Shown: positions 6,284 to 63,837, numbered from the stretch's first letter. The stretch: DNA of 64,000 nt from Bryobacteraceae bacterium (GCA_049511335.1 JBEKYD010000001.1:28097-92096), one strand, 5' to 3'. Notes: generated by a model not told the origin, from the letters alone. Made by a program: numbers and translations.

Positions 6284-8812
6284 CTACGACTCCCAGCAGT
6301 TCGAGATAGAGTGGTTCCACCGATCGAAGACCTCTTCGTCGGTGAGCGGCGCCAGATAGTTCCACACGCGGCCGCGGGCGATCTTCCAACGCATGGCGGC
6401 GCCGAGAAAGCACGCGCCAACCGGCTCGGGCGCACGCGCAATTTCTTCCATCACGCGATCGAGCGATCCCGCCGTGGTGAAGTTGCGCAACTGGAACAGC
6501 AGGCGGTTCCGCCGGACGATGTTTTCGACGGTTTCCGCCGCATAGTGCCGTCCGATGGTGGCGCGCTGCGTATGGTAGGCGATCGATCCGGGCGAATACC
6601 ACGAGTCGTAGCCCAGCTTTCGCGCGCGCCAACCCCATTCCACGTCCTCCCAGTAGAACGGGTCGTAAGCCGCGGCATCGAGGAACTTTCTCAGCAGTTC
6701 GGTTCGAAACAGCGACGCGCCGCCGCCGGCGTAGAAGGTCGGAACCGGGTTGCCGGATTTCGGAATCCAGTCGTGAATGGTAGCCAGGCCGGACTCTATC
6801 AATAGCGTGGTCCAGTTGGTTTCGTCGCGGAAGCGCGTCGCGTCTTTGAGAATCACCTGCGAGGCCACCGAGAACGTTTCCTCCGCGCGGCCGGCTGCCA
6901 GCTCGCCGAGCGCAGCAGGTTCCAGGATGACGTCGCTGTTCAGCAGGTACACCCAGTCGTAACGCACGCGCGCGAGGCCGGCGCGAACGGCGCCTGCGAA
7001 GCCCAGGGGCCGGTCATAGAAACGCCAGCGAACGCCGGGGTGCTCCCTGCACAGATGCTCGTAGCCGGAGCGCGGCGAACCGTTCACCACCACGATCGCT
7101 TCCAGCGGCTCGCGCCACTCGAAAGCGGCCGCGCGCACGCTCGCCAGGCAGGCGGTCAGCTCTTCCACGTTGTCCCATTCCGGAATCAGAATTGAAAGGC
7201 CCGGCTTCCATCGGCCGCCGAAGGGTGGCCTGAGCCGGCGGCGGTAGCGGCGTTGCAACCGCATCCCCCAACGGTCGATCGCATGCACGAAACGGTCTAG
7301 CGGCTCAAGCGCCGCCCGCCGCGCGGCGGTGCGTTCCGGGTCGACAAACTCTTTCGACACCAGAAGCGCCAGGGCGAATCCAAGGTCGCGCCGGTCGGTG
7401 CCCACTCCGCGTTCCGAAGGCCGGTAGACATGCGCGGTACGAAACTCGAGCATCCAGGGCGCCGGCTGGTCCGCGTCCACCGCGAAATCCAGCCCGAACG
7501 GCATGATTCCCTCCCAAGGGTTCGTCACTCGTCCGATTTCGTATCCGTTCAGGCGGATCGAAAGCCGGTTCGGATGGTTCGCGGGCCCGGATGGCAGCAT
7601 CCCGGAGACGTGCAACGTGCGCGAGCCCGGACGCGGTTCTAATATTGCCGCGGCCTGCTGGCTGCTCCAAATGTGTTCTTCGTCCGACGGCTCATGCCAG
7701 CCGTAGAGCAGTTGAGCGTTGAGGCCCCTCGCCGCAACGATCTCACTGGCACGCGGGCCGGGGCGGTAGGCTCGCTTCCACGGGCACGTGCGGCATTCCG
7801 GGACTTCCCCGCGCCGGTATCGCTCGCGGAAGCGCCGGTACGCTTCGCCGTGCCAGATCTCACCGATCGGCTGCTCCGCCAGGTTGCCCAACGGATGTTT
7901 GTCCAGCACCTCGCAAGCCACCACGTCGCCATTCGACAATACGTGCGCCGTCTCCCACGGGTTCTGCTCGCAGGAATAGATAAGCGCGCCCTGGGGCAGT
8001 TCCCACGGGTACGGAACCGGAACTTCGCCCAGCAGGCGGCCGCCGGCCGTCGACAATTCGTTCGAGATCGTGATGCGGATCTCCGGGTGGGTTCGCTCCG
8101 TCTCCGTCACCATGGCTCGCAAGCGGCTTTCAAACTCCGGCCGGTGCGTGCCGCCCGGCGTCAACTCAACATGGAAGGGTGCCGGAATCTCGTCGCGCCG
8201 CATCACCGGAAAGATCATGATTTCATGCAGCGCCAGTCGATCCGCGAGCGCAGCAACCGAACGAAGCTCGGCCAGGTTCGTGTCCATGGCGACGAACGCG
8301 AAATCGACGACTGGCGATGGCGGCGCCGCCCGGCACAATTCCAGGAAACTCACGAGGCGCGAGCGCAGCGTGGCGAACGAACTGTAACGATAGACTTCCG
8401 CAAACTTTTCGGGATCGGTGGCGTGCACGGAGACGGTGAGCCGGTCGAGCCCGCTCCGGCTCAAGGGGCCCAGAAGAGGCTCCGGCGCGCTGGCCATCGC
8501 GGTGACCAGCTCCACATACGCTCCGGCAGCCCGTGCCCGCTCGATGGCCGGGATCAACTCGGGGTAGACCGTGGATTCGCCCGAGTAGTTCAGCACGAAC
8601 TTGCGCGGATCCACCAGCGCGCCCACCAGCGCATCGAACACCGCGAATGGCAGGTGGACGCCCGCGCCGCGCCGCATTTTGCGGGAACAGAAGATGCAGT
8701 CGAAGGGGCACTTCGACGTCAACTCCACCCACAGAGTGCGGGGCGTACGCGCGGCTAGAAACTCCGGAGGGCCCCCTTGTCTCTCTGTATCAGAGTCCAA
8801 ACGCGGCCGCAT
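6284..8812 (-). CDS. radical SAM / SPASM(twitch)-like domain fused to a family-2 glycosyltransferase
   Basis: 842 aa.
- CX3CX2C cluster motif CPFDCIFC at aa 35-42 (nt 8687-8710).
- Cys-rich auxiliary region SCEQNPW...VVACEVLD...GEIWHG...PECRTCPWK (nt ~7770-7980).
- A GWHEPSDEEHIWSS-type linker domain.
- A GT2-like half from LSILIPEWDNVEE...VVVNGS...NSDV (nt ~6400-7200). Confidence 0.9.
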   Translation of the reverse strand: MRPRLDSDTERQGGPPEFLAARTPRTLWVELTSKCPFDCIFCSRKMRRGAGVHLPFAVFDALVGALVDPRKFVLNYSGESTVYPELIPAIERARAAGAYVELVTAMASAPEPLLGPLSRSGLDRLTVSVHATDPEKFAEVYRYSSFATLRSRLVSFLELCRAAPPSPVVDFAFVAMDTNLAELRSVAALADRLALHEIMIFPVMRRDEIPAPFHVELTPGGTHRPEFESRLRAMVTETERTHPEIRITISNELSTAGGRLLGEVPVPYPWELPQGALIYSCEQNPWETAHVLSNGDVVACEVLDKHPLGNLAEQPIGEIWHGEAYRRFRERYRRGEVPECRTCPWKRAYRPGPRASEIVAARGLNAQLLYGWHEPSDEEHIWSSQQAAAILEPRPGSRTLHVSGMLPSGPANHPNRLSIRLNGYEIGRVTNPWEGIMPFGLDFAVDADQPAPWMLEFRTAHVYRPSERGVGTDRRDLGFALALLVSKEFVDPERTAARRAALEPLDRFVHAIDRWGMRLQRRYRRRLRPPFGGRWKPGLSILIPEWDNVEELTACLASVRAAAFEWREPLEAIVVVNGSPRSGYEHLCREHPGVRWRFYDRPLGFAGAVRAGLARVRYDWVYLLNSDVILEPAALGELAAGRAEETFSVASQVILKDATRFRDETNWTTLLIESGLATIHDWIPKSGNPVPTFYAGGGASLFRTELLRKFLDAAAYDPFYWEDVEWGWRARKLGYDSWYSPGSIAYHTQRATIGRHYAAETVENIVRRNRLLFQLRNFTTAGSLDRVMEEIARAPEPVGACFLGAAMRWKIARGRVWNYLAPLTDEEVFDRWNHSISNCWES

Positions 8813-9311
8813 ATTTCACCTTGCCGCGAATCTGATCGAGAGGCCCGGGGCGGAGCTCCATCGCCATGAATGCTTCGGGAGGAAACGGGCTTTCGAGAGA
8901 CCGTGCCTTCTCGGTGGAGAAGCCAAAGCGCGGGTAGTAATCGGGATGGCCGACAACGATGACGATGTGCTCACCCTGCCTCCGCAACCGATCCAGGCCA
9001 TAGCCAATCAGCCGTCCGCCGATCCCCTGACGCTGGTGCTCGGGCAATACGGCCATCGGAGCCAACGCCACCGCCGGGACCGATCCGCCGCTTGTTTCAA
9101 TCGACATCCGGCTGAACAGGATGTGCCCAACGATGCGGTTCTCCAGCTCGGCAACGATCGATGCAAGCACGACGCCTTCGGCGCGCAAGTTATCGACCAG
9201 GTCGGCTTCGTCCATGCGGCCAAATGCCGCTTGGTTGACCGAGTGGACCGCCGATCGCTCCTGAGTTTCGGTGCTCTCGTGACGGATAGTCAGATTGCTT
9301 TCCGGATGCAC
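8790..9311 (-). CDS. GNAT-family N-acetyltransferase
   Basis: 173 aa. Acetyl-CoA binding motif QRQGIGGRLIGYGLDRL. The stop overlaps the radical-SAM start by 23 nt. Confidence 0.85.
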   Translation of the reverse strand: MHPESNLTIRHESTETQERSAVHSVNQAAFGRMDEADLVDNLRAEGVVLASIVAELENRIVGHILFSRMSIETSGGSVPAVALAPMAVLPEHQRQGIGGRLIGYGLDRLRRQGEHIVIVVGHPDYYPRFGFSTEKARSLESPFPPEAFMAMELRPGPLDQIRGKVKYAAAFGL

Positions 9312-9349
9312 ATGCCGATTTTAGCGCTACTCCCGCGCCCGGCCTCGGG

Positions 9350-10513
9350 TCACACGCGCAAATACCAGCCCTTCCGGTGCATCGCGTACGCGACCAGATA
9401 CATGGCTCCCGTAAACACCAAGGAGTACAACAGCGACGCAATCGCAGGCGAGGCCAGCGGCGCGAAGAGCGTGCGATAGAGATAATGCTGCAGCGAGATG
9501 TGGCCGGACGCCGCGTTCCATCGGATGCTCGAGATCGCTTCGGCAGAGAACTCCGCCGCCATGTACACGGCAATCGCATTCATTCCCAGGATCACCAGCG
9601 GTCTCACGGGTTTGTGCCAGCCCAGGCCGTCCACCAGCCAGGCGAACATGGCGAAGACCACGAAATCGAGGCCCGCCATGAAGAGACAGAAGGAATCCGT
9701 CCAGAGTTTCTTATTGATAGGCAGCCAATAACTGCAGATGGCGCCGGCGGCGAGCAGAAGGTTGCCGGCCAGGAAGAGCCAGGTCATGCGCTCGGGCAGC
9801 GACCGGCGCAGCCGCAGCAGGTGGCCGGCCAGCACGCCAAACAGTGTGGTGGCAATGGCCGGAAGGGTGCTGACGATGCCTTCCGGGTCCCAGGTCTTAG
9901 TCTCTCGATAGTTATGGCTGCCCAGGACCATGCGGTCGATGTAGTGGGCGAAATTGCCGTCCTCGTCGAGGCGGCCGGGGCCGAATCCCGGCGCCGGAAC
10001 CAGCGTCATCAACATCCAATAGGCGGCCAGCAGGCCGATCAGCCAACAGATTTGAGCGCGCAGACCGGTGTACAGAAACAGGATCGATACCACCAGGTAA
10101 CAGATGGCGATCCGCTGCAGCACACCCAAGATTCGTTGCGTGCCCAGGTCGAAGAGAGGCGGCGCGTAAACGGCCAGCCCGAAGGCAAACAAGATGGCGG
10201 CGCGGCGGAAGATCTGCGGCAACAGGCGCGCGCGGGGAATGCCTTCGGCCAGGCGCTTGCCCAGAGAAAGGGTGATGGCGACGCCGACAATCCACAAAAA
10301 CGTGGGGAACACCGTATCGGTGAGCGTCCAACCGTTCCACTGCGAGTGGCGCAACTGCGTATACGCGTCCCGCTCGCTGCCGTTGTTATTGACAAGCACC
10401 ATGAGCGCCATGGTGAGGCCGCGGAAGGCATCGAGCGAAAGCAGCCGCCGCGGCGTGGAAGCGGGGGTCTCGAGGACCGGTTCGAGGGACGGTGCGACGG
10501 AGGTCGGGGTCAT
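9350..10513 (-). CDS. HGSNAT-like membrane acyltransferase (DUF1624/DUF5009, heparan-alpha-glucosaminide N-acetyltransferase family)
   Basis: Start re-set to the ATG at 10513 (MTPTSVAPS...), which overlaps the ogt stop as ATGA. Family signature LLSLDAFRGLTMALMVLVNNNGS...HSQWNGWTLTDTVFPTFLW followed by about 10 TM helices. The 129 codons upstream in the ORF track are Arg-rich and antisense-like. Confidence 0.8.
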   Translation of the reverse strand: MTPTSVAPSLEPVLETPASTPRRLLSLDAFRGLTMALMVLVNNNGSERDAYTQLRHSQWNGWTLTDTVFPTFLWIVGVAITLSLGKRLAEGIPRARLLPQIFRRAAILFAFGLAVYAPPLFDLGTQRILGVLQRIAICYLVVSILFLYTGLRAQICWLIGLLAAYWMLMTLVPAPGFGPGRLDEDGNFAHYIDRMVLGSHNYRETKTWDPEGIVSTLPAIATTLFGVLAGHLLRLRRSLPERMTWLFLAGNLLLAAGAICSYWLPINKKLWTDSFCLFMAGLDFVVFAMFAWLVDGLGWHKPVRPLVILGMNAIAVYMAAEFSAEAISSIRWNAASGHISLQHYLYRTLFAPLASPAIASLLYSLVFTGAMYLVAYAMHRKGWYLRV

Positions 10514-11046
10514 GCGCTTTCCTCTCCTGTAAAGGGTAACGCGCCGCCGCGTTCGTGATCGAGGAGCCAGCGTTTGCGGGCCAGGCCGCCGCCGTAGCCG
10601 GTAAGCGCGCCATTGGCGCCGATGACGCGATGGCAGGGAACCACGATGGCGACGGGGTTGGAACCGTTCGCCAAACCGACGGCGCGGCAGGCACTGGGCC
10701 GTCCGATGCGAGCGGCCAGTTGGCCGTAGGTGGTAGTGGAACCGGCCGGAATCCGGCGCAGCGCGGCCCAGACCTGGCGCTGGAATGGAGTGCCGCCGGC
10801 ATCGACGGGGATGCGGTCGATGGCAGTCACGTCGCCGGCAAAATAGGCTTCGAGCGGTTCGCGGATTTCGGGCGGCGCGGCGGCGGGGACCAGGCGGCAC
10901 GGGCCGTAGTGCCGTTCGAGGGCGCGCTCGAGGCCGTCGTCGCCGTGAAGGTCCAGCATGCGAAGCGCGGCCTGGCCGGCAGTGCCGCTCCAGACCAGGC
11001 GCAGCACGCCGATGGGCGAAGTCATGCGGTCGAGGAACAGGTCCAT
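10510..11046 (-). CDS. ogt: methylated-DNA--protein-cysteine methyltransferase
   Basis: Active-site PCHRVIGANGALTGYGGGL and helix-turn-helix region TYGQLAARIGRPSACRAVGLANGSNP. Start set to the ATG at 11046 (MDLFLDRMTSPIG). Confidence 0.9.
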   Translation of the reverse strand: MDLFLDRMTSPIGVLRLVWSGTAGQAALRMLDLHGDDGLERALERHYGPCRLVPAAAPPEIREPLEAYFAGDVTAIDRIPVDAGGTPFQRQVWAALRRIPAGSTTTYGQLAARIGRPSACRAVGLANGSNPVAIVVPCHRVIGANGALTGYGGGLARKRWLLDHERGGALPFTGEESA

Positions 11047-15569: not shown

Positions 15570-16741
15570 TCAGCTCCCATAAATGGACTCTCGTTCCGAT
15601 TGTGGTGTCTTGCCCGTGATGAGCGGGGCGCCGATCTCCCGCGCGATGCCCTCGACCTGGGCCAGATACCCGCCCATGATGAGGATGCGCCCCTCGGGGT
15701 AGCCGGCGAGGAGAGCGCGCAAGCGGACCATCTTCGCCGGATTCTCGGCGGCGATGCGGAACTGCGCCCTTCTCTCCGCAAGGGCGTACTCCATCCGCCG
15801 CTCGGCGCTCATCGGCACGCGCTCCTCCACGCAGGTGGCGGCCGCGATCCACGCTTGCCGCTCCAAGTCTTTCCATGGGACGTCGAAGCGCTTTGGCCCG
15901 ATAAGCGCGAACACGTCTCCTTCCCGGCCGTCTTCCCGCACCAGGGTTGCGGTCAGGCCCAGCCGGCGGCGGGCCTGGAGGTCCGCGGTGGCGCGAAACA
16001 CGGGAGCCGGCAGCAGGTGCACCTCATCGTAGACGATCAGTCCCCAGGAACGCGCCCGGAACAGATCGAGGTGCGGGAATTCGCCTTCGCGGTTCGCGCG
16101 CCAGGTGAGGATCTGGTACGTCGTCAGGGTCACCGGCCCGGTGTTCTTCCGCTCGCCGGTGTATTCGGCGATGTCGCCGGGTTGAAGGGTCGTCTTGTCG
16201 AGGAGTTCGCGCCGCCACTGCTGGACCGCCGTCAGGCTGGTGGTGAGCACCAGGGCGGTCTGCCCGACAAGTTTCATCGCAGCCATGCCGACGATGGTTT
16301 TGCCGGCGCCGCACGGAAGAACCACTACGCCGCTGCCGCCACGGTCGGATCCCGCCTGGTAGAAAGCCTCGGCCGCTTGCCGCTGGTAGTCGCGAACCGC
16401 GAACCCGGCGCCTTCTCGAAGCGCGATCGGAAACGGCTCCCCGGCCACGTAACCCGCCAGGTCCTCGGCGGGTTGGCGCGAAATCGTCCGGCGCTGAAGG
16501 TGGCCGACGGCGAATGGACGACCTCGGCCACGGCAGCGCGCTGTAATTCATCCAAGCCTTCCCAAACCGCGCGTAAACCCTCCCCTTCGAGGTGGCGGAC
16601 GATCACATTGGCGATGTCCAGCTTCCTGGTTGGCACTTTCTCCCCGGTCAGCGCGGCGAGCTTCCGGAGTTCATCCGATGTCATGGATTCGAATGCCAAC
16701 TCGATCCCACGCATGGTTTCATCGTCAAGGTATAGTTTCAT
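15570..16741 (-). pseudogene. XPB/Rad25-type SF2 DNA helicase, frameshifted and C-terminally truncated
   Basis: Two overlapping reading frames are involved (16741-16325, then 16448-15570).
- Motif I: VLPCGAGKT.
- Motif II: LIVYDEVHLL.
- Motif III: GLTATLVREDG.
- The ORF stops right after GKTPQSERESIYGS, so helicase motifs V-VI are absent in all three downstream frames.
- The frame switch lies around 16450-16520. Confidence 0.6.
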
Positions 16742-16845: not shown

Positions 16846-17163
16846 ATGGACGGGATCGGAAAGCAAATCACGCTGGCGATTACACCGCAAGCGCTGGCGG
16901 GCGCATCTTCCGCGGAGGTAAACTTGAAAGTTACGGATGCCGCCGCTCCCACTCTCTACGGAATTGAATTCACCGCGGATCACGGCATTGTCTCTGTCTT
17001 GTCATCGGGCTGGGGTTTCAAATTTCGTCCATTTTCTTCCGCGGATCAACTGCGGACCTTACCCATTTCCAACTTTCATAAGAAGAAGATGATCGATTGT
17101 CTGGCTGGACCGCCGCCGGCGCGATGCGTTTTTCAGCTTAACGCTATGCCGCCGGAACACTAG
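16846..17163 (+). CDS. hypothetical small protein (105 aa) in a low-GC spacer upstream of the patatin gene
   Basis: ATG at 16846, with balanced, protein-like composition (GIEFTADHGIVSVLSSGWGFKFRPF). No SD and no recognisable motif. The longer ORF-track version overlaps the helicase antisense. Confidence 0.3.
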   Translation: MDGIGKQITLAITPQALAGASSAEVNLKVTDAAAPTLYGIEFTADHGIVSVLSSGWGFKFRPFSSADQLRTLPISNFHKKKMIDCLAGPPPARCVFQLNAMPPEH

Positions 17164-17240
17164 CCGGCAATCAGGTTTTCGTAACGGATTCAAGGGCCAT
17201 GTCGAACGCCGTCACGGTGAATTTTCCGGAGGGATAACCC

Positions 17241-20200
17241 ATGGAGCCGATTCTGGAGCTGGCAACCCGCATCACGACTCACCTCTGGTTCTTGCACGAT
17301 CTCTTTCCCGAGGAGCCATCTCTTCGAAGGTTGCTAACGGGACCCTGGCGCAAGAAGACCGAACCTAAGGACTACGCGCGATTGCGCAATCTGCTCGATC
17401 TCGCGGACGTGAAAGTGGAGGCTGGCCTGTGGACGGCCGACGCCTGGCTGTGGCCCTACAGGAAGCCTCCCAAGCCAAAGAAGCCACTGTCGTTGCGCGA
17501 ATGGTGGAGATGCCGCTCTTTACGGAAGGATCTTGAACAACTCAGGAAGGATTGGACCGGTCTTGCGAGGCACAAGAGAACGGCCCTTACCACGATAGAG
17601 GCTCGCGTCAAGGCTCTCCGCGATCACCCTCTCGATGAAGGACGCGAAGCTGAGGCATCGGCCGGACGCCAGTTCAGGACTCGCGAAGAACTCTTCGAAT
17701 GGGTTGTCGAGGGGTTGCTCAGGATCGATGTGCTCAGCCGAGTGGAACTGGCGATGGCCTTCATGCCGGATCACAAGTTTTTTGTCGAGGAGCAGATCAC
17801 GCAATCCGCCGAAAGCGCAAGGAGACACCGCGCGCCGCGCGTCTGCCCCGGATTGCCGGAGGAACTACAAGGCGGGCGCCTGCGGCAGAGCAGTCGGTAC
17901 GATATGGCGATGGAGTGGCGGACACTCCTCGATGAGGCCAACACCCTTCAGCGATTCAAACTCCTGCTTGAGCCTACGGAGTTTCGCGAACTGTGCTTGG
18001 TTCTGAGCGTCCCCGTTCCATTTTCGATGGTGCTGCGCGACGAGCTGAACGAAATTGCGCGTTCGCGTACGACGCGCCTGAGTGACACAGAGCCGAGCGG
18101 CATAGACGGAGAGAATCGACTCGCTACGGGGGTCTTCGGGCCGAAATACACCCCCGAACGCCAGGCATTCCGCTCTCGTCTATTCGGTCTTGCGTTTTCG
18201 GGCGGCGGAATTCGCAGCGCCACATTCGCGCTCGGCTTGTTGCAATCGATGGCGGACCGCAACATCTTGCCGCAGGTCGATGTCCTGTCCACGGTCTCGG
18301 GCGGCGGATACATCGGAAGCTGGCTGATTTCCTGGATCAAACGAAAAGGCGGCGTGGCTTCGGTACAACAATCGATGTCGGGCAACGCGACTCCGAAGCC
18401 CTGCGCCAGCGCATCTACCGTGGCGCCCCAGCGTCCCGCGCCCGATCCTTACGGCCAGGTCAGCCGCAATGCCGATCCGGAAAGCGATCACGTGCGGCCG
18501 GTTCGCCTGCTGCGCCATTATGCCAGCTACCTTGCGCCGCGAAACGGCCTGTTCGAGGCCGACACGTGGACCATTGGCGCCACATGGCTGCGCAATACCT
18601 TGCTCAATCTTCTGATCCTGACGGCGTTCTTGGGAGCGCTGATTCTGCTGCCGCGCATTGCCGCCTATTTGCTGGTGCGCCAACTGTTCTTGACGGACAC
18701 GGGGCACACGCCGGCTCTGTCGTGGCGTATGTTCGCGTTAGCAAGCGGCTTCGTATTGGCTGCCTGTTGGGTTATCGGAGCGCGCGATCTATCCAAATTC
18801 GGCCCCTCGCTGAAATCGCGAAAAGCGGGCGGCGCGGTGGCGCGGGGCGACAGCGACGCCGGGGTCGCGCTCACGCTGGGGCTAGCATTGATTGGGACCT
18901 TTTTTGAAATCGCGTTTTTCTGGTACGCGCAGCCCGCCGGCATCGATTGCCGGAGAGGCGGCGAAGCATGGGCGGTGACGGTTCTATTGGCGTGCGTCGT
19001 CCTCGGATTCTTCCGCAACCCGTGGGCGGTCAAAGGATGGAAGTGGTGGAAAATCGCCGTCTCGCTTCTCGCGGGCGCCACGGGCGGCGCGCTTGCCGCC
19101 GGCGTTTATTACATCGTCAAAAGCTATGCCAACGATACGGAACGCGGCGTCTGGTTCGCGGCTAGCATCGGCCTGCCGCTGGCGCTCGCTGCAAACGGCT
19201 TGACTGTGGTCCTCTTCGTCGGCCTGATGGGAAATCTCTTATCGGACGAACAGCGCGAATGGTGGGGCCGCATGGGCGCGCTGCTCTGCATCGCCATTGC
19301 GGCCTGGCTCATTGTCTGCGGCGTGTGTTTCTTCGCGCCTTTGGGTATTGCGCAGCTCGGCATCGCGGCGGCGGGCGCGGGCGGCGCGTGGGCGTTGATT
19401 ACCGGATGGGGCACGAAGCTCGCGTTCAGCCCGAAATCGGGCCGCGACGGCGCCGCCGCGCCGGATTGGAAGACCGCTCTGGGGCTGGCGGTGGCGCCGC
19501 CGGTATTTGTGCTCGGGCTTTTGTGTCTCGCCTCTTTCGGCGCCTTTCTGTTAGTGGATTGGGCGATGACACTGTATCCCCAGGCCGCCTATGCGCCCGT
19601 CTCTCCGGACCTTCTGCGCGCCAGTTCGGCGCCCTCCGCGCGATGGATCGTCAATCACTATTGGCCGCTCCTCTACGCCGGCTCTTACATTCCGCTCGTT
19701 CTGATCTTGGCTCTTGCCGCCGTGTCCCTGCTGCTCGCCTGGCGCGTGGATATTAACCAATTCTCCATGCACAACTTCTACAAGAACCGGCTGGTGCGCT
19801 GCTACTTAGGCGCCTCGCGCGCACGCCGGCATCGGGCCGCGAACGCCTTCACGGGATTCGATCTCGAGGATGACATCCGGCTCGTGCGTTTCCAGCATGC
19901 CGATCGATCGCAGCCGGGAGACATGGCCTTGGATTGCCAGCCGGGCTATGCCGGTCCGTTTCCCATCCTCAATACGGCGCTCAACGTAACTCAGGGCCAA
20001 GATCTCGGATTGCAAGAGAGGAAAGCGGAATCGTTCGTCTTCACGCCGCTGTGGTCGGGTTTCGATTTTTCGCGCAGGCAGGCAGCGGTTAGAAACACGC
20101 AGCTCGGCGAATATGGCTACCGGCAAACGAGAGAGTTCGGCGAACCCGAGAACCTCGGCGCCTCGTTGGGGACGGCGATGGCCATCTCAGGCGCGGCCTT

Positions 20201-20984
20201 CAATTCCAACATGGGCTTCCACACTACGCCCGCGCTGGCCTTTCTGCTGACGGTGTTCGGAGTCCGGCTCGGGTGGTGGGCCGGCAACCCGCGCTTTCCA
20301 ACCTGGGAGTGTCCCTCGCCGCCATTGGGTATCGGACCATTGGCCCGCGAGCTGACCGCGAACACCACCACCGATTCCGATTTCGTCTTACTGAGCGATG
20401 GCGGCCACTTCGAGAATATGGGTCTGTATGAGTTGGTGCGGAGGCGGTGCCGGTATGTCATCGTGGTGGATGCCGAGGAAGACGAGAAGTTCAAGCTCGA
20501 AGGCATAGGCGGCGCCATTCGCAAGTGCCGCATCGATTTCGGCGTGGTGATCGATTTGAACCTGGAGGTGCTGCAGCCGCTCGGAGATCCGGCCGTCAGC
20601 AAGCTGCACTATTCGCTCGCCAGCGTTCGTTATCCCGGCGAGGAGGAATGCGGTCGCTTGATCTACATCAAATCGTCGGTCACAGGCGATGAACCGGTGG
20701 ATGTGGTCGAGTTCCGCAAGCGGCATCCCGAATTCCCCCACACGTCTACCGCCGACCAGTTTTTTGACGAATCGCACTTTGAAAGCTACCGGGCTCTGGG
20801 CCAGCATGTGGGCGGGGGAATCTTCCTCCATGATGTGAAGTCGGGGCCGATCGAAGCGGACGAACCGCTGGGACAGCGAGTGGACGAGTTGTTCCGCGGC
20901 GTGGAGGGCGCCTGGAAGCTACGCCTGGCGGCGGTCGAAAAAGAGAAAAAGGGGGAAGGGAAGAGCGGTGATAAAAAAGCGTGA
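17241..20984 (+). CDS. giant patatin/cPLA2-like phospholipase with an inserted polytopic membrane domain
   Basis: GGAGGGA sits 7 nt before the ATG.
- Oxyanion motif: FSGGGIRS (nt 18201-18215 for GGGIR).
- Nucleophile: TVSGGGY (Ser353, nt 18297).
- Asp motif: LSDGGHFENMG (Asp1053, nt 20397).
- Roughly ten hydrophobic helices lie between about aa 445 and 845. Confidence 0.9.
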   Translation: MEPILELATRITTHLWFLHDLFPEEPSLRRLLTGPWRKKTEPKDYARLRNLLDLADVKVEAGLWTADAWLWPYRKPPKPKKPLSLREWWRCRSLRKDLEQLRKDWTGLARHKRTALTTIEARVKALRDHPLDEGREAEASAGRQFRTREELFEWVVEGLLRIDVLSRVELAMAFMPDHKFFVEEQITQSAESARRHRAPRVCPGLPEELQGGRLRQSSRYDMAMEWRTLLDEANTLQRFKLLLEPTEFRELCLVLSVPVPFSMVLRDELNEIARSRTTRLSDTEPSGIDGENRLATGVFGPKYTPERQAFRSRLFGLAFSGGGIRSATFALGLLQSMADRNILPQVDVLSTVSGGGYIGSWLISWIKRKGGVASVQQSMSGNATPKPCASASTVAPQRPAPDPYGQVSRNADPESDHVRPVRLLRHYASYLAPRNGLFEADTWTIGATWLRNTLLNLLILTAFLGALILLPRIAAYLLVRQLFLTDTGHTPALSWRMFALASGFVLAACWVIGARDLSKFGPSLKSRKAGGAVARGDSDAGVALTLGLALIGTFFEIAFFWYAQPAGIDCRRGGEAWAVTVLLACVVLGFFRNPWAVKGWKWWKIAVSLLAGATGGALAAGVYYIVKSYANDTERGVWFAASIGLPLALAANGLTVVLFVGLMGNLLSDEQREWWGRMGALLCIAIAAWLIVCGVCFFAPLGIAQLGIAAAGAGGAWALITGWGTKLAFSPKSGRDGAAAPDWKTALGLAVAPPVFVLGLLCLASFGAFLLVDWAMTLYPQAAYAPVSPDLLRASSAPSARWIVNHYWPLLYAGSYIPLVLILALAAVSLLLAWRVDINQFSMHNFYKNRLVRCYLGASRARRHRAANAFTGFDLEDDIRLVRFQHADRSQPGDMALDCQPGYAGPFPILNTALNVTQGQDLGLQERKAESFVFTPLWSGFDFSRRQAAVRNTQLGEYGYRQTREFGEPENLGASLGTAMAISGAAFNSNMGFHTTPALAFLLTVFGVRLGWWAGNPRFPTWECPSPPLGIGPLARELTANTTTDSDFVLLSDGGHFENMGLYELVRRRCRYVIVVDAEEDEKFKLEGIGGAIRKCRIDFGVVIDLNLEVLQPLGDPAVSKLHYSLASVRYPGEEECGRLIYIKSSVTGDEPVDVVEFRKRHPEFPHTSTADQFFDESHFESYRALGQHVGGGIFLHDVKSGPIEADEPLGQRVDELFRGVEGAWKLRLAAVEKEKKGEGKSGDKKA

Positions 20985-22026
20985 TTTGTCGATCGCCTTG
21001 GCGGTCATAGTTATGTTCGCAGCTCTGATCTATGCGGGTAGGCGCGAGCGGCGCCCAATCTTAGACAGGATCGGCGAGGTGAATCTGTGGCCGGCGGTTG
21101 CCGCTTCCGGAATTGCAGCGCGGCCGGCAGCGCAAGATTTTCCGTTTAGGGTCGATGATCAGGCCGAGGTGCTGGAGACGGGGCTGCAAGATGTTCGCGG
21201 GCTGGCGTGCCGGGACGACGACGTATATGTGGCCGAAGGGAACGGCAGAGTTTTGAAGTACCCGGGGAACGTCCGCATCGTTGCGCCTGTAACGGACGCA
21301 GGCGAACCGGTGAAAATCGACCTAAGAGGCGCGGCAGTCCATGGCGATTCCCTTCTGCTCGCCGATTTCGGCCGCGGTATCGTCGTCGACCGTCCAGCGC
21401 CGCCGGGCGATATACGGGAACAAGCCATCAGCGGCAAAGAGATTTCTGGCCCGTGCGGAATCGCCGTGGCGGCGGACGGCGCGCTCTTTGTAACCGACGA
21501 CCGTCCGTGGCCGAAGCCCGGGAGCGAAGCGGCATTTGAGACAGCCGACTGTTCGCGTTGGCTGGATAAAGGAAGTCCACGAATCTTTGGGTCCGTATTT
21601 ATGGCCCCGGCCGCGGCCGCCCCTGCGCCATACTCGTGGACGATCGTCCAAACCCGGCTGAGGCATCCTTCGGGGATCGCGGCGGTGGGAGCGAACGGCC
21701 CGGTTTACTTAGCGGAGGCGGATGACACGGAAGTACGATGGCCGGTGATTGAGTGGAGCGGCACGGAGTGGGTGCAACGGAAAGCGCTCGGCTCTGCGCC
21801 AATCGAAGGCAGAAAACTGTCCCCGTTCCTGGGCGTGGCGCTTTCCCCGCAGGGCCGATTCATCTTCGCGGCTGGTCCGAAGGGACTATACGTATTCAGC
21901 CGAACTTCAATGCTCGGACAGATGGTATTCGAAGAGCCGGTGGGCGGTGTGGCAGCTTGCGGCCGCACACTTTACCTGACCGTAGGCCAGCGCCTTTGCC
22001 GCATCTGGCTGCATAAGACAGCTTAG
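20968..22026 (+). CDS. N-terminally TM-anchored beta-propeller protein (NHL / SMP-30-like repeats)
   Basis: GTG start overlaps the patatin stop by 17 nt and is preceded by GGGGGAAGGG. TM helix LSIALAVIVMFAALIYA. Repeats of the type GPCGIAVAADGALFVTD, PSGIAAVGANGPVYLAE and LGVALSPQGRFIFAAG. Confidence 0.8.
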   Translation: MIKKRDLSIALAVIVMFAALIYAGRRERRPILDRIGEVNLWPAVAASGIAARPAAQDFPFRVDDQAEVLETGLQDVRGLACRDDDVYVAEGNGRVLKYPGNVRIVAPVTDAGEPVKIDLRGAAVHGDSLLLADFGRGIVVDRPAPPGDIREQAISGKEISGPCGIAVAADGALFVTDDRPWPKPGSEAAFETADCSRWLDKGSPRIFGSVFMAPAAAAPAPYSWTIVQTRLRHPSGIAAVGANGPVYLAEADDTEVRWPVIEWSGTEWVQRKALGSAPIEGRKLSPFLGVALSPQGRFIFAAGPKGLYVFSRTSMLGQMVFEEPVGGVAACGRTLYLTVGQRLCRIWLHKTA

Positions 22027-22056
22027 TCCACTACTTCATAAGTTCACCTACGTATT

Positions 22057-22136
22057 CCCGGGCAACCGCTTCCTAACGGTCGCGGCTCGGAGACGCGCGA
22101 AACGGAGCCGCGACCGTTAGGGAGCGGTTTGCCCGG
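22057..22136. repeat. REP family 1, complete hairpin (80 bp)
   Basis: Arms CCCGGGCAACCGCTTCCTAACGGTCGCGGCTC and GAGCCGCGACCGTTAGGGAGCGGTTTGCCCGGG are complementary with 1 indel and 1 mismatch. Lies between convergent genes, so it is a likely bidirectional terminator. Confidence 0.85.
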
Positions 22137-22194
22137 GATGTTACCGAACTTCCGAAGTGATGTAATTAGTGAAAAGCAACGGGCGACGCTCTTC

Positions 22195-23310
22195 CTACTT
22201 CTTCACAAACACGACCGAAACCGGCGATGGGACCTCCAGTGTAGAGCCTGTTGGGGCAAGCTGCCCGGTCTTTCGGTCGATCCGAAAAACCACGACGTTG
22301 TCCGAGTTCTCGTTACCCGCCAGCAGGTACGCGCCGGTGGGGTCGATCGCAAATGCGCGCGGTGTCTTGCCGCCGGTAGACACATGGCCGAGCGCGGTCA
22401 GCTTGCCGTCAGCCGCATGGATGGCGAAGATGGCGATGGAATTGTATTCGCGCAGCGAAGCGTAGAGGAACCGTCCAGCCGGATCGATGGCGATCTCCGC
22501 GCCGCTCCGGACGCCGGTGTACCCCGCGGGCAGGGCATCGATGGTCTCGATCTCTTGCAGCACGCCGGCGCTCGCATCGTAGCGGCAGGCCACCACTCTC
22601 GCTCCCATCTCCGTCAGTACGTAAACCAAACGGCCGTTCGGGTGAAATGCCAGATGCCGCGGGCCGTAGCCGGAGGCAATCTTGAAGAACGGCGGATCGT
22701 TAGCCGCCAGCGAGCCCTTCGCCCGGTCGATCCGATAAACCATCACTTTATCCAGCCCGAGGTCCGGCACCAGCAGGAAGCGATTGTCGGGTGAAACGAA
22801 CACGCCGTGCGCGTGGGGGCCTTTCTGCCGGTCTGGGTTGATGCTGCTACCGGTATGCTGCACGAATCCCGAAAGTTCTCCCAACGTGCCGTCCTTGTGT
22901 ACCGGATATGCTTCGACGCTGCCGCTGCCGTAGTCGGCGGCAAACAGCCAATCGCCAGTCTTATCCAGGGTAAGATGGCACGGGCCGGAACCGCGCGACT
23001 TGACCCGGTTGAGCAGCTTCAGCCGGCCTGACTGCCCATCGATAGCGAAGGCGCTGACTCCGCCGTCGCCCTGTTCGTGAACCGCGTAGAGGAACTGCCC
23101 GTTGGGGTGGACCGCCAGAAACGCCGGATTCGCCGTTTCCGCCGCCAGACCGATGGAAGCAAACTTTCCGTCGGCGGGATCGAAGCGGTAAGCATAAATG
23201 CCCTTACTCTTGTCCGTGTGTGTGTAAGTGCCGAAGTAAGCGACGTACTGGGCAAACATGGCCGGCGTGAACGCCGCGGCCATCGCGAAACTACGTAAGA
23301 TCGTCATCAT
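22195..23310 (-). CDS. secreted 7-bladed beta-propeller lactonase (6-phosphogluconolactonase/Pgl-like family)
   Basis: Signal peptide MMTILRSFAMAAAFTPAMFAQ. Family-typical segments GIYAYRFDPADGK, GPCHLTLDKTGDWLF, GPRHLAFHPNGRLVYV and DNVVVFRIDRKTG. Confidence 0.9.
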   Translation of the reverse strand: MMTILRSFAMAAAFTPAMFAQYVAYFGTYTHTDKSKGIYAYRFDPADGKFASIGLAAETANPAFLAVHPNGQFLYAVHEQGDGGVSAFAIDGQSGRLKLLNRVKSRGSGPCHLTLDKTGDWLFAADYGSGSVEAYPVHKDGTLGELSGFVQHTGSSINPDRQKGPHAHGVFVSPDNRFLLVPDLGLDKVMVYRIDRAKGSLAANDPPFFKIASGYGPRHLAFHPNGRLVYVLTEMGARVVACRYDASAGVLQEIETIDALPAGYTGVRSGAEIAIDPAGRFLYASLREYNSIAIFAIHAADGKLTALGHVSTGGKTPRAFAIDPTGAYLLAGNENSDNVVVFRIDRKTGQLAPTGSTLEVPSPVSVVFVKK

Positions 23311-31947: not shown

Positions 31948-32031
31948 AACCGCTCCCTAACGGTCGCGGATCGGTTACGACGCCGTGTGTTTGCAGCCAC
32001 TTACCGAGCCGCGACCGTTAGGGAGCGGTTG
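31948..32031. repeat. REP family 1, complete hairpin (84 bp)
   Basis: Arms CAACCGCTCCCTAACGGTCGCGGATCGGTTA and TTACCGAGCCGCGACCGTTAGGGAGCGGTTG. The loop contains TGTTTGCAG, as in the copy at 37601. Confidence 0.85.
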
Positions 32032-37600: not shown

Positions 37601-37691
37601 TTTTAACCGCTCCCTAACGGTCGCGGCTCGGTTATGAGTCCCGCTTGTTTGCAGTCCTTACCGAGCCGCGACCGTTAGGGAGCGGTTAAAA
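37601..37691. repeat. REP family 1, complete hairpin (91 bp)
   Basis: Arms TTTTAACCGCTCCCTAACGGTCGCGGCTCGGTTA and TTACCGAGCCGCGACCGTTAGGGAGCGGTTAAAA are perfectly complementary. Sits 41 nt after the NTF2-like stop, so it is a likely terminator. Confidence 0.9.
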
Positions 37692-62577: not shown

Positions 62578-63837
62578 TCATCCGCGAATTTCCGCGAAAT
62601 CGACCGAGCCGCGACCGTCAGGAAGCGGTGGCTGGAGTCCGTCAGTCACGTCGCGCCCCGCCGCGTCGCCGTACAGCGTGGCCGAGTAGCGCCGTTCCAC
62701 TTGGAAGCCCATGGCGATGGTGACCAGGGCAAGCCCCACCGACGTCGCCGGTAGGAATGCTCCGAAGCGAAGCACCAGCAGCCATATCCCCAGCACCGCG
62801 GCGTTCGAAATCAAAACCGCCTTGCGGCGGGGAGACTTGGATGCGAATGCCAGGATCATGAGCGAGTACGGAATCGCCACCACGGCGTCGACGATGTAAT
62901 GCTCCCCCGTGCTGAATACCGAAACCACGGTTGCAGCCAAAAATATACCGGTCAGTATCCGCAACCATTTCCAGGGACGGGCAAGATAAAAGAGCAGCAG
63001 AGCGGTGGCGACGTGCAGCGACGGCATGGCATTGGGAATACCGGATATCAGTGCCGGAGCCAGTGCCACGTGGCCGGGTAACTGGGGAAAGGACGGGAAC
63101 GCGTACTTGGGTCCGGCGGCCGGATATAGAAAATAGAGGGCGAAACCGATCACCGGATTCGAGATCGTCAGTTTCAAGATGTCTACCTTGTTGTTCTTGA
63201 TGCCGGCATGCGCGGCAAACAGTAATGCCATCCAAAAACCCAGACTGTTATACACCGTGGTCATTACGCTGCCGAGTAACTGGCTCTTCAATGCGATTTG
63301 GCTGATCGCAAAATTGAAATGTGGGCCCAAGGCGCCATCGAAAGCGTACAAGAAATTATCCAGCTTGAACCGGCACACAAGCTTGATAAGCGATACGTAG
63401 AACCCCAGCACGATACCGATGTAAGAGAACAAAAGCACGCCGCTCAGGGAGAGCCGGTAGACTGAATCCTTCGGCCCCTTGAACGCGCGGTACGCCAGCG
63501 GAGGAATGCAAAAGAACGGAAGATAGACGCCGATGCCGATAATGGAACACCCTGGATAAGGGTGCTCGGCAACCGCAAACCAGTGAATCGCGCGTACCAG
63601 AGCCGCGGCGGCAACAATGAGTAACGATTCCTTTCGGGGCGGGCGCGTCCATAGATAGACGACGAAAACGCCCCACATCCCGAATCCGTTGAGAGAATCG
63701 TCCGTCCAAGAATGGTCGGCCCCGGAATGCACAAAGAGCGCGACCGCCACGGGAGCTGCCACGACACTCAGCGCGACCGCCGTCAGGACGATTCTTAGCG
63801 CCTTGCGATTAGGGAAGCCAGGAGCTGTTACTCCCAT
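62578..63837 (-). CDS. polytopic PAP2-superfamily membrane protein (Aur1/PAP2_C-like)
   Basis: 419 aa with about 10 TM helices. PAP2 C2/C3-like motifs AMPSLHVATAL and STGEHYIVDAVVA. The last ~15 codons are encoded by a REP arm. Confidence 0.75.
   Translation of the reverse strand: MGVTAPGFPNRKALRIVLTAVALSVVAAPVAVALFVHSGADHSWTDDSLNGFGMWGVFVVYLWTRPPRKESLLIVAAAALVRAIHWFAVAEHPYPGCSIIGIGVYLPFFCIPPLAYRAFKGPKDSVYRLSLSGVLLFSYIGIVLGFYVSLIKLVCRFKLDNFLYAFDGALGPHFNFAISQIALKSQLLGSVMTTVYNSLGFWMALLFAAHAGIKNNKVDILKLTISNPVIGFALYFLYPAAGPKYAFPSFPQLPGHVALAPALISGIPNAMPSLHVATALLLFYLARPWKWLRILTGIFLAATVVSVFSTGEHYIVDAVVAIPYSLMILAFASKSPRRKAVLISNAAVLGIWLLVLRFGAFLPATSVGLALVTIAMGFQVERRYSATLYGDAAGRDVTDGLQPPLPDGRGSVDFAEIRG
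62604..62630. repeat. REP family 1, single arm (CCGAGCCGCGACCGTCAGGAAGCGGTG)
   Basis: Matches the right arm of the full hairpins with 3 mismatches. Lies between hslU and the convergent PAP2-like gene, and inside the latter's 3' end. Confidence 0.7.

Follow-up and report, generated by a model that had tools for sequence, protein, structure and literature searches.

A 64,000-nucleotide (nt) stretch of DNA from a Bryobacteraceae bacterium (GCA_049511335.1, JBEKYD010000001.1:28097-92096), referred to here as the window and numbered from its first letter, encodes a lipase of 1247 amino acids (aa) at 17241-20984, followed by a second, overlapping open reading frame (ORF), ORF2, which encodes a predicted beta-propeller. 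The sequence comparisons and a structure model together support the lipase as a Ser-Asp protein of the patatin/cPLA2 superfamily with a polytopic membrane domain inserted in its catalytic fold. The lipase defines a large uncharacterised bacterial family. To our knowledge, a catalytic fold that houses a polytopic membrane domain has not been described, yet the arrangement is common in environmental bacteria. The lipase gene and its parts are as follows.

17228-17233, plus strand: Shine-Dalgarno-like GGAGGG, 7 nt 5' of the lipase ATG (read from the sequence).
17241-20984, plus strand: lipase gene, predicted membrane-embedded cPLA2/patatin-type Ser-Asp acyl hydrolase; ATG ORF of 1247 aa with a TGA stop.
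17241-18005, plus strand: N-terminal all-helical domain, aa 1-255, subfamily-specific and fast-evolving (model helices, library scans and phmmer).
18012-18083, plus strand: conserved helix ahead of the catalytic domain, aa 258-281, motif VPFS..VL..EL.EI..SR..R.
18153-18530, plus strand: N-terminal catalytic half, aa 305-430, comprising a strand, the GGGIR loop, a strand, the Ser353 elbow and a helix.
18201-18215, plus strand: GGGIR oxyanion loop, aa 321-325 (FSGGGIRS starts at aa 319).
18297-18299, plus strand: Ser353 codon (nucleophile elbow TVSGGGY, starting at aa 351).
18558-19745, plus strand: inserted polytopic membrane domain, aa 440-835, about 10 helices, predicted N-in/C-in.
19746-20840, plus strand: C-terminal catalytic half, aa 836-1200, strand FVLLS followed by Asp1053-Gly-Gly.
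20397-20399, plus strand: Asp1053 codon (LSDGGHFENMG, starting at aa 1051).

The 1247-aa ORF and its three patatin/cPLA2 motifs were found where an earlier note on this DNA, made from the sequence alone, had placed them, and the motif positions give the 700-residue separation of Ser353 and Asp1053 that it had reported. The GGGIR, Ser and Asp motifs were all invariant in an alignment of 97 homologues: S320 to T328 in the oxyanion loop region, V352 to G356 in the nucleophile elbow, and D1053, G1054 and G1055 showed no variation. The split layout was present in all 76 complete relatives from other genomes, in which the Ser-Asp distance ranged from 605 to 821 residues (median 676) and 7-12 hydrophobic segments lay between the two residues. 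Because the motifs are invariant in the 97 homologues and the split layout is kept in 76 of 76 complete relatives, the pattern in the lipase ORF is not due to chance. The elbow, T-V-S-G-G, departs from the consensus G-x-S-x-G, with Thr at position -2 in 72 of the 76 relatives. The C-terminal catalytic half carries a second small-residue motif containing a Ser, A-I-S-G-A-A (aa 981-986; 20181-20198), in which S983 to A986 are invariant and A981 and I982 nearly so across the family. No second copy of the lipase gene or of ORF2 was found in the 64-kb window. A promoter scan found no sigma-70-like site, and terminator-like sites occurred at background level.

Library and profile searches connected the region around the nucleophile to the superfamily. 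The Pfam Patatin model (PF01734) covered lipase aa 317-376 (score 28.0 bits, cut-off 27.7; positions 1-58 of the 191-position profile) and matched 17 of 17 spliced homologues, with a best E-value of 3.4e-10. The family profile aligned the GGGxR and Ser region weakly to cPLA2 delta, VipD and ExoU (E-values 0.11 to 0.51); in the alignment to cPLA2 delta (residues 324-407), Ser353 fell on the elbow GISGS, at low significance (E-value 0.11). NCBIfam returned nothing for the lipase, Pfam covered no more than about 60 residues of it, and no sequence-level link of the whole protein to solved lipases was found. PF01735 matched 4 of the 17 spliced homologues, all below threshold (best E-value 0.008), and the Pfam scan found no C2 domain. 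Membership in the cPLA2/PLB family proper (PF01735, PLA2G4) was rejected on the lack of a PF01735 match, of a C2 domain and of a soluble cap.

An AlphaFold2 model of lipase aa 1-1200, built on the 97 homologues, was confident, with a mean predicted local distance difference test score (pLDDT) of 88.5 and a predicted template modelling score (pTM) of 0.89. In the model a strand at aa 315-319 precedes the Gly loop, a strand at aa 348-351 is followed by Ser353 and a helix at aa 354-369, and a strand at aa 1048-1053 terminates in Asp1053. The best Foldseek matches to the model in the PDB were human cPLA2 delta (5IZ5) and cPLA2 alpha (1CJY), with probabilities of 1.0 and 0.99 and alignments spanning 428-575 columns. 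Ordinary viral patatins superposed on about 50 residues around the N-terminal catalytic half. That half holds about 110 ordered residues, too few to account for the cPLA2 fold matches, which must therefore include the C-terminal half. The patatin/cPLA2-type assignment in the earlier note is thus supported both by the Pfam Patatin match and by the best PDB matches of the model.

A Kyte-Doolittle scan picked out nine 19-mers of strong hydrophobicity within aa 457-833, and the AlphaFold2 model placed about ten long helices in the region aa 440-835; both bear out the polytopic membrane block that had been proposed to lie between Ser and Asp. The lipase lacks a signal peptide, and its first membrane helix comes after 440 soluble residues. 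Predicted inside loops averaged 15.3 Lys+Arg, versus 6.3 in outside loops, across the 97 sequences. With ten helices, both catalytic halves come to lie on one side of the membrane. The topology is best read as N-in/C-in, with the active site in the cytoplasm and kept close to the inner leaflet; the cytoplasmic orientation is strongly indicated. Nine polar and aromatic residues of the membrane block were invariant: D441, W443, R451, N452, R672, E673, W674, R677 and W717. Foldseek returned no significant match of the block to any known membrane fold.

A conserved membrane domain of about 400 aa, with polar and aromatic positions that do not vary, exceeds what simple anchoring would require, and one explanation is that the ten-helix insert translocates or extracts a lipid or lysolipid and passes this cargo to the lipase for degradation or detoxification. 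The cargo would be outer-leaflet or periplasmic lysolipids generated by stress or by competitors' phospholipases, captured or presented on the periplasmic side by the propeller. The LplT flippase, paired with the Aas acyltransferase, offers a parallel; cPLA2 and PLB enzymes show strong lysophospholipase activity; and with a periplasmic partner and cytoplasmic catalysis, either information or substrate must cross the membrane. Against this, no significant structural similarity to any transporter was found with Foldseek: the major facilitator superfamily (MFS), ferroportin and VMAT reached probabilities of 0.06-0.20 with target TM-scores below 0.25, and a known transporter fold was rejected. An internal repeat, typical of transporters, was also lacking, and duplication was rejected when hhalign of the two halves of the membrane domain gave a probability of 0.9%. 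In addition, the 136 genes immediately flanking about 75 relatives included no linked acyltransferase or flippase gene. A conduit of this kind is considered unlikely.

The protein search with the lipase returned more than 5000 significant hits, and a scan of species-representative genomes found the split lipase in at least 590 species. Carriers belonged to the Acidobacteriota, Bacteroidota, Beta-, Gamma- and Alphaproteobacteria, Nitrospira, Verrucomicrobia and Gemmatimonadota. A lipase copy was present on 43 megaplasmids or chromids (Rhizobium, Sinorhizobium, Methylobacterium, Cupriavidus and others), and no homologue was found in phage records. Cultured carriers include Methylobacterium radiotolerans JCM 2831 (plasmid pMRAD01, MRAD2831_RS61425), Massilia aurea, Dyadobacter bucti and Azospirillum ramasamyi (DM194_RS20000). 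The nearest relative was from the same phylum in 66 of 78 cases and from another phylum in 12 of 78, with several deep subfamilies inside the Acidobacteriota. Catalytic halves were 50-56% identical between phyla, which points to strong purifying constraint. Members carry the database labels "patatin-like phospholipase family protein" or "hypothetical." Literature searches found no paper on the split membrane-lipase architecture and no solved structure; the only patatin mentioned in PMC13069673 is the canonical one of CBASS (cyclic oligonucleotide-based anti-phage signalling system).

The constant core of the family corresponds to aa 256-1195 of the lipase. Among the 76 relatives, the N-terminal regions measured 39-460 aa and the C-terminal tails 142-520 aa. 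Matches to distant relatives in tblastn begin near aa 256, and F261, E268, L269, E271 and R276 of the pre-catalytic helix are kept from Acidobacteria to Bacteroidota; on these alignments the helix at aa 258-281 appears as the start of the family-wide core. An uncharacterised C-terminal domain of 150-370 aa, with the motif QLMENVYLDLNLE...HPDN.GW.NLF..W, was found in 16 of 18 long-tailed relatives (L004, L006, L007, L009, L010, L012-L015, L021, L023, L051, L060, L066, L073 and L078) and had no Pfam or PDB match; it is lacking in the lipase described here. One of its carriers, L066 (DATMNZ010000161.1, labelled Candidatus Saccharimonadales), is a full-length homologue on a contig assigned to the candidate phyla radiation (CPR); its closest relative is acidobacterial, at 39% identity, and its placement may reflect bin contamination or horizontal transfer. 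The homologue at 7284-10915 of L091 (Hymenobacter volaticus plasmid NZ_CP095064.1) is annotated as two adjacent coding sequences, 7284-9632 and 9737-10915, which could mean a disrupted gene or an assembly error; immediately upstream of it is a gene for an N-acetylmuramidase.

The N-terminal domain (aa 1-255) was modelled as all-helical and had no match in Pfam, NCBIfam or PADLOC, in keeping with the earlier observation that nothing in the N-terminal part of the protein could be recognised. A phmmer search of this domain against 1.84 billion representatives returned only 11 proteins, every match starting from the protein's own residue 1: two full-length lipase homologues (P0023 and P0030) and shorter proteins of 73-674 aa. 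Identity to close relatives was 40-44% in the N-terminal domain, versus 68-74% in the catalytic halves. Bacteroidota members carry a distantly related domain, at 14-20% identity. A sensor module shared with other effectors was rejected, the exhaustive phmmer search having placed the domain only at the N-terminus of these lipases; judged from these comparisons it is a fast-evolving appendage of this lipase lineage.

The partner gene and its elements are as follows.

20951-20960, plus strand: Shine-Dalgarno-like GGGGGAAGGG for ORF2, lying within the 3' end of the lipase gene (read from the sequence).
20968-22026, plus strand: ORF2, partner gene of 352 aa with a GTG start, overlapping the lipase TGA by 17 nt.
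20977-21045, plus strand: N-terminal membrane helix of ORF2, aa 4-26.
Within 20968-22026, plus strand: six-bladed NHL/SGL-type propeller, about aa 60-350, predicted to be periplasmic.

The GTG start at 20968, the 17-nt overlap and the single-membrane-helix NHL/SMP-30-like propeller described in the earlier note were all recovered. The model of ORF2 had a pLDDT of 83.4 and about 24 strands, and confirmed it as a predicted membrane-anchored six-bladed NHL-type propeller. Its PDB sequence match was the Pizza6 NHL design (1.6e-6). Foldseek matched it to Pizza6 and to the putative gluconolactonase 3e5z (E-values 2e-11 to 1e-10; target TM-scores 0.70-0.75), and strictosidine synthase and TRIM NHL domains were also among its best structural matches. 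The NHL Pfam model was sub-threshold on ORF2 itself (18.4 versus 20) and scored above the gathering cut-off in the homologues P0124, P0128 and P0139. The mean net charge beside the ORF2 helix was +2.4 in the N-terminal flank and -0.2 in the C-terminal one, and the homologue P0136 continues through a Pro/Gln-rich linker into a C-terminal OmpA peptidoglycan-binding domain; because of this charge bias and the OmpA-fused homologue, the propeller is most likely periplasmic. Residues D118, R120, D177, R179, H233 and S235 were conserved in the ORF2 alignment, which suggests a putative specific binding or catalytic site.

The ORF2 family is tiny, comprising 21 hits. Apart from P0121, which is 97% identical, there are 20 less closely related homologues, and at least nine of these lie on contigs equal in length to the contig of a lipase homologue. 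The partner directly follows the lipase with overlaps of 4-32 nt in L081, L082, L084, L086 and L087 and is also directly downstream of it in L001. The pair was accordingly kept in 6 of 6 loci of the acidobacterial subfamily, with surroundings that were otherwise unrelated each time. Gene overlap and conservation of the pair in close relatives support the suggestion that the two proteins are made together, and translational coupling of ORF2 to the lipase, with ORF2 probably periplasmic, is strongly indicated. As to how widely the pair is conserved, a point raised in the earlier note, it is kept in the close subfamily and is not present in 79 of 80 loci from species-representative genomes. Beyond this subfamily no conserved partner was found, even among the Bacteroidota members that carry a related N-terminal domain. 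ORF2 seems to occur only beside this lipase subfamily; the propeller and the helical domain at the lipase N-terminus are both restricted to a single acidobacterial subfamily.

A trans-envelope sensor-effector pair of a so far undescribed kind could be built from these two proteins. The propeller would read a signal from the envelope and, through helix-helix contacts, gate a phospholipase that has its active site built around its own membrane domain, and this domain would act as a lateral lipid gate. The signal could be damage to the cell wall or outer membrane, the arrival of a phage or predator, or a particular ligand, and envelope state would be converted into inner-leaflet deacylation, either as remodelling or as controlled self-lysis. 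This proposal is viewed as improbable. If it were true, the family would be the bacterial lineage closest to eukaryotic cPLA2, and the position of the cPLA2 cap would be one that can host a whole membrane domain.

The surroundings of the lipase genes bear on whether the pair serves in defence. Among the 136 flanking genes there were 150 different Pfam families, the commonest of which (TPR) occurred in no more than four, and clustering of 2169 flanking ORFs revealed no recurrent family. PADLOC had no match for the lipase, ORF2 or the N-terminal domain at an E-value of 0.1 or better. About 6 of the 136 flanking genes matched defence models, three with HerA/mad8 and single ones with type I restriction-modification and PDC-M03B models; there is no control set for this count, with which mild enrichment remains compatible. 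Isolated hints of conflict genes lay within 2-10 kb of three loci: TIR_2 near L086 (16219-16797), a CHAT protease, accompanied by a sigma-70-like gene, and a fragment of Prim-Pol near L087 (3891-7966 and 23469-23930), and Fic near L088 (13458-14567). These TIR_2, CHAT, Prim-Pol and Fic neighbours form no pattern across relatives. No CD-NTase or other signal-generating enzyme, secretion system or chaperone was found in the window or among the surveyed neighbours.

Several candidate assignments were rejected on this basis. A defence island was rejected on the PADLOC scan, the 136 flanking genes, the clustering of 2169 ORFs and the phage search, and was also unsupported by the annotation of three megaplasmid and six metagenome loci. 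A CapV-type defence effector was rejected because there was no defence hidden Markov model (HMM) match, no CD-NTase operon and no consistent defence-island location. An ExoU/VipD-type secreted toxin was rejected because of about ten internal membrane helices and the lack of secretion-system genes nearby.

The earlier note had favoured an island-borne abortive-infection or stress module, in which the propeller, the N-terminal domain or both would sense phage or envelope damage and the lipase would break down the inner membrane of its own cell, in the manner of CapV. Lipases of the patatin type are well known as effectors in defence (for example CapV in CBASS), the coupling of the two genes is kept while their surroundings change, and the variable N- and C-terminal extensions, the carriage on megaplasmids, the cross-phylum nearest relatives (12 of 78) and the few loci near TIR_2, CHAT with Prim-Pol, and Fic would all be compatible with such a module. 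The proposal is not supported: PADLOC matched neither protein nor the N-terminal domain, the few neighbours matching defence models include no recurrent family, the window neighbours are metabolic and carbohydrate-related, there is no compositional island, and there is no phage homologue. The N-terminal domain occurs in no other effector architecture, most members are solitary and have no identifiable sensor, and the very high cross-phylum conservation is unusual for arms-race genes. A suicide module is therefore regarded as doubtful, and a patatin motif beside an odd partner is insufficient to call a defence system.

The reading preferred here, with a roughly even chance of being correct, is a role in regulated membrane-lipid turnover or envelope homeostasis, with no dedicated anti-phage suicide switch. 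It is favoured because the surrounding genes are metabolic and vary from locus to locus, no sign of defence and no phage copy was found, and the sequences point to purifying constraint. Housekeeping lipid remodelling, which the earlier note had mentioned as the alternative, is undemonstrated; it fits the data better than the defence reading does. On the preferred reading the lipase would be an integral inner-membrane enzyme whose two encoded catalytic pieces fold together on the cytoplasmic face, with the ten-helix membrane domain spliced in behind the nucleophile helix. The insert would hold the active site permanently at the inner leaflet, would probably provide the lateral path to Ser353 for a glycerolipid or lysolipid of the membrane, and would do the membrane-docking job of the C2 domain and cap/lid of cPLA2. 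Arg325 of the lipase presumably corresponds to the phosphate-binding Arg200 of cPLA2. The reaction would most likely be a deacylation, by a phospholipase A or B or a lysophospholipase. A bulk phospholipase A acting without restraint on the inner leaflet would kill the cell, and many members are solitary; the enzyme would therefore be gated by its membrane domain or act on a minor lipid. In the acidobacterial subfamily, lipase and ORF2 would be made stoichiometrically. The periplasmic propeller, like a PknD-type NHL sensor domain, would most likely bind the membrane domain of the lipase and couple lipase activity to the condition of the envelope, and the fast-evolving N-terminal helical domain may be a cytoplasmic regulatory cap.

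The chemistry could also be a transfer, with the Ser-Asp dyad moving an acyl chain between membrane lipids and the product being a specialised envelope lipid of soil bacteria. Several characterised patatin/cPLA2-fold members transacylate, among them cPLA2 epsilon, which makes N-acyl-phosphatidylethanolamine, and some PNPLAs. An active site held permanently at the bilayer would favour a lipid acceptor over water, and solitary, unregulated members would be easier to reconcile with a non-destructive reaction. No sequence feature here, however, separates a transferase from a hydrolase, and no biosynthetic gene cluster surrounded the gene in about 75 loci. A transacylase or acyltransferase is held to be very unlikely.

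Several points weigh against the lipid-turnover reading and the architecture on which it is built. The Foldseek E-values of the lipase model to cPLA2 were only about 1e-2, and the C-terminal catalytic half had no sequence-level match to any solved lipase or other structure. Proximity of Ser353 and Asp1053, and their superposition on the cPLA2 dyad, are what we infer from the invariance of the motifs, the secondary structure and the fold matches; contact between lipase and propeller is likewise what we infer from gene coupling. Most members of the family are about 900 aa long, with an N-terminus of 39-100 aa, and have neither the partner nor the N-terminal domain, so the proposed regulation cannot be general. 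Lipid-related neighbours were rare among the 136 flanking genes (GDPD 2, patatin 2 and acyl-CoA dehydrogenase 2), which leaves a housekeeping role without positive genomic support. Finally, the variable terminal extensions, the patchy distribution and the carriage on megaplasmids would also fit an accessory conflict gene.

Three further features adjoin the pair in the window.

15570-16741, minus strand: XPB/Rad25-type helicase remnant in two frames, upstream of and divergent from the lipase.
22054-22139, no strand assigned: imperfect palindrome resembling a repetitive extragenic palindromic (REP) element, with 35-nt arms (86% complementary) and a 16-nt spacer, between the convergent ORF2 and lactonase genes.
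22195-23310, minus strand: seven-bladed lactonase (PF10282, E-value 1e-121), convergent to ORF2.

The helicase remnant consists of a 138-aa N-terminal piece (16741-16325) and, in another frame, a 292-aa ResIII/helicase piece (16448-15570) that matches residues 316-592 of human XPB and ends before helicase motifs IV-VI; it is probably a pseudogene. The lactonase and ORF2 are adjoining propeller proteins with no detectable sequence similarity to each other. A GH3 glycosidase also lies downstream and convergent, with the lactonase, and farther out are an aminotransferase, a GntR regulator, a GH42 enzyme and a TonB-dependent-type outer-membrane protein. An 842-aa ORF at 6284-8812 on the minus strand fuses a radical SAM/SPASM domain to a family-2 glycosyltransferase (GT2), an unusual combination.

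The GC content was 0.616 in the lipase gene and 0.618 in ORF2, against a window mean of 0.615. A dip to 0.52 at 16953-17252 was intergenic only and was only the ninth-lowest 300-nt window, where hand counts in the earlier note had given the lowest GC. A compositional island was rejected on these figures. The core of the REP-like palindrome, CGGTCGCGGCTC, recurred intergenically at 31961-32017, 37618-37674 and 62606-62617, with 8 matches versus 1.6 expected by chance. The palindrome is a dispersed repeat with copies elsewhere in the window and was rejected as the boundary of a unit; it probably ends transcription. Of the island context drawn in the earlier note, the broken XPB helicase and the hairpin are present, and the GC island and the hairpin as a boundary fell away.

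A polytopic membrane domain almost never interrupts a soluble alpha/beta catalytic domain, and here the interruption is conserved across at least 6 phyla and hundreds of species. If the membrane insert is a substrate gate, it would be a new answer to how a lipase gains access to the bilayer, built in versus recruited to the interface. The family offers a bacterial point of comparison for tracing where cPLA2-type enzymes came from, and it flags an unknown route of membrane-lipid turnover in soil Acidobacteria, in Bacteroidota and on rhizobial megaplasmids.

Among known systems, cPLA2 (PLA2G4; 1CJY for alpha, 5IZ5 and 5IXC for delta) is the nearest in fold. It shares the GGGxR loop, the Ser nucleophile and a D-G-G-type Asp motif, and it too has an insertion that separates the dyad residues in sequence, with a Ser-Asp spacing of 321 residues in cPLA2 alpha (Ser228 and Asp549). 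Unlike cPLA2, the lipase has no C2 domain or sign of Ca2+ dependence, its insertion is a predicted polytopic membrane domain of roughly 400 aa where that of cPLA2 is a soluble cap/lid, and its elbow reads T-V-S-G-G where cPLA2 has G-L-S-G-S. The lipase is also bacterial and, by prediction, permanently membrane-integrated, whereas cPLA2 is recruited.

CapV, ExoU, VipD and RssA/YchK belong to the same superfamily; PF01734 matches the oxyanion loop and Ser region of the lipase, and ExoU and VipD align weakly to that region. They differ in being soluble, or secreted and recruited, proteins of 300-700 aa with a Ser-Asp separation of about 140-200 residues. CapV is activated by cyclic nucleotides and ExoU and VipD by host cofactors, whereas the lipase locus has no CD-NTase, secretion system or chaperone. 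An analogy may also be drawn with neuropathy target esterase (PNPLA6), a lysophospholipase anchored in the endoplasmic reticulum: it is a membrane-tethered, cytosol-facing patatin-type enzyme with extra regulatory domains that controls bulk phospholipid turnover, and no sequence relationship to the lipase beyond the superfamily was detected. Its anchor is a single N-terminal helix outside the catalytic domain, and it carries cyclic-nucleotide-binding domains; the predicted anchor of the lipase is ten helices inside the fold.

ORF2 resembles PknD-type NHL sensors and the SGL/PON lactonase propellers in its modelled six-bladed NHL/SGL fold, its one membrane helix and the predicted placement of the propeller outside the cytoplasm. 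The Pizza6 designs derive from the PknD sensor. Unlike the PknD-type sensors, ORF2 is a separate polypeptide with no kinase domain.

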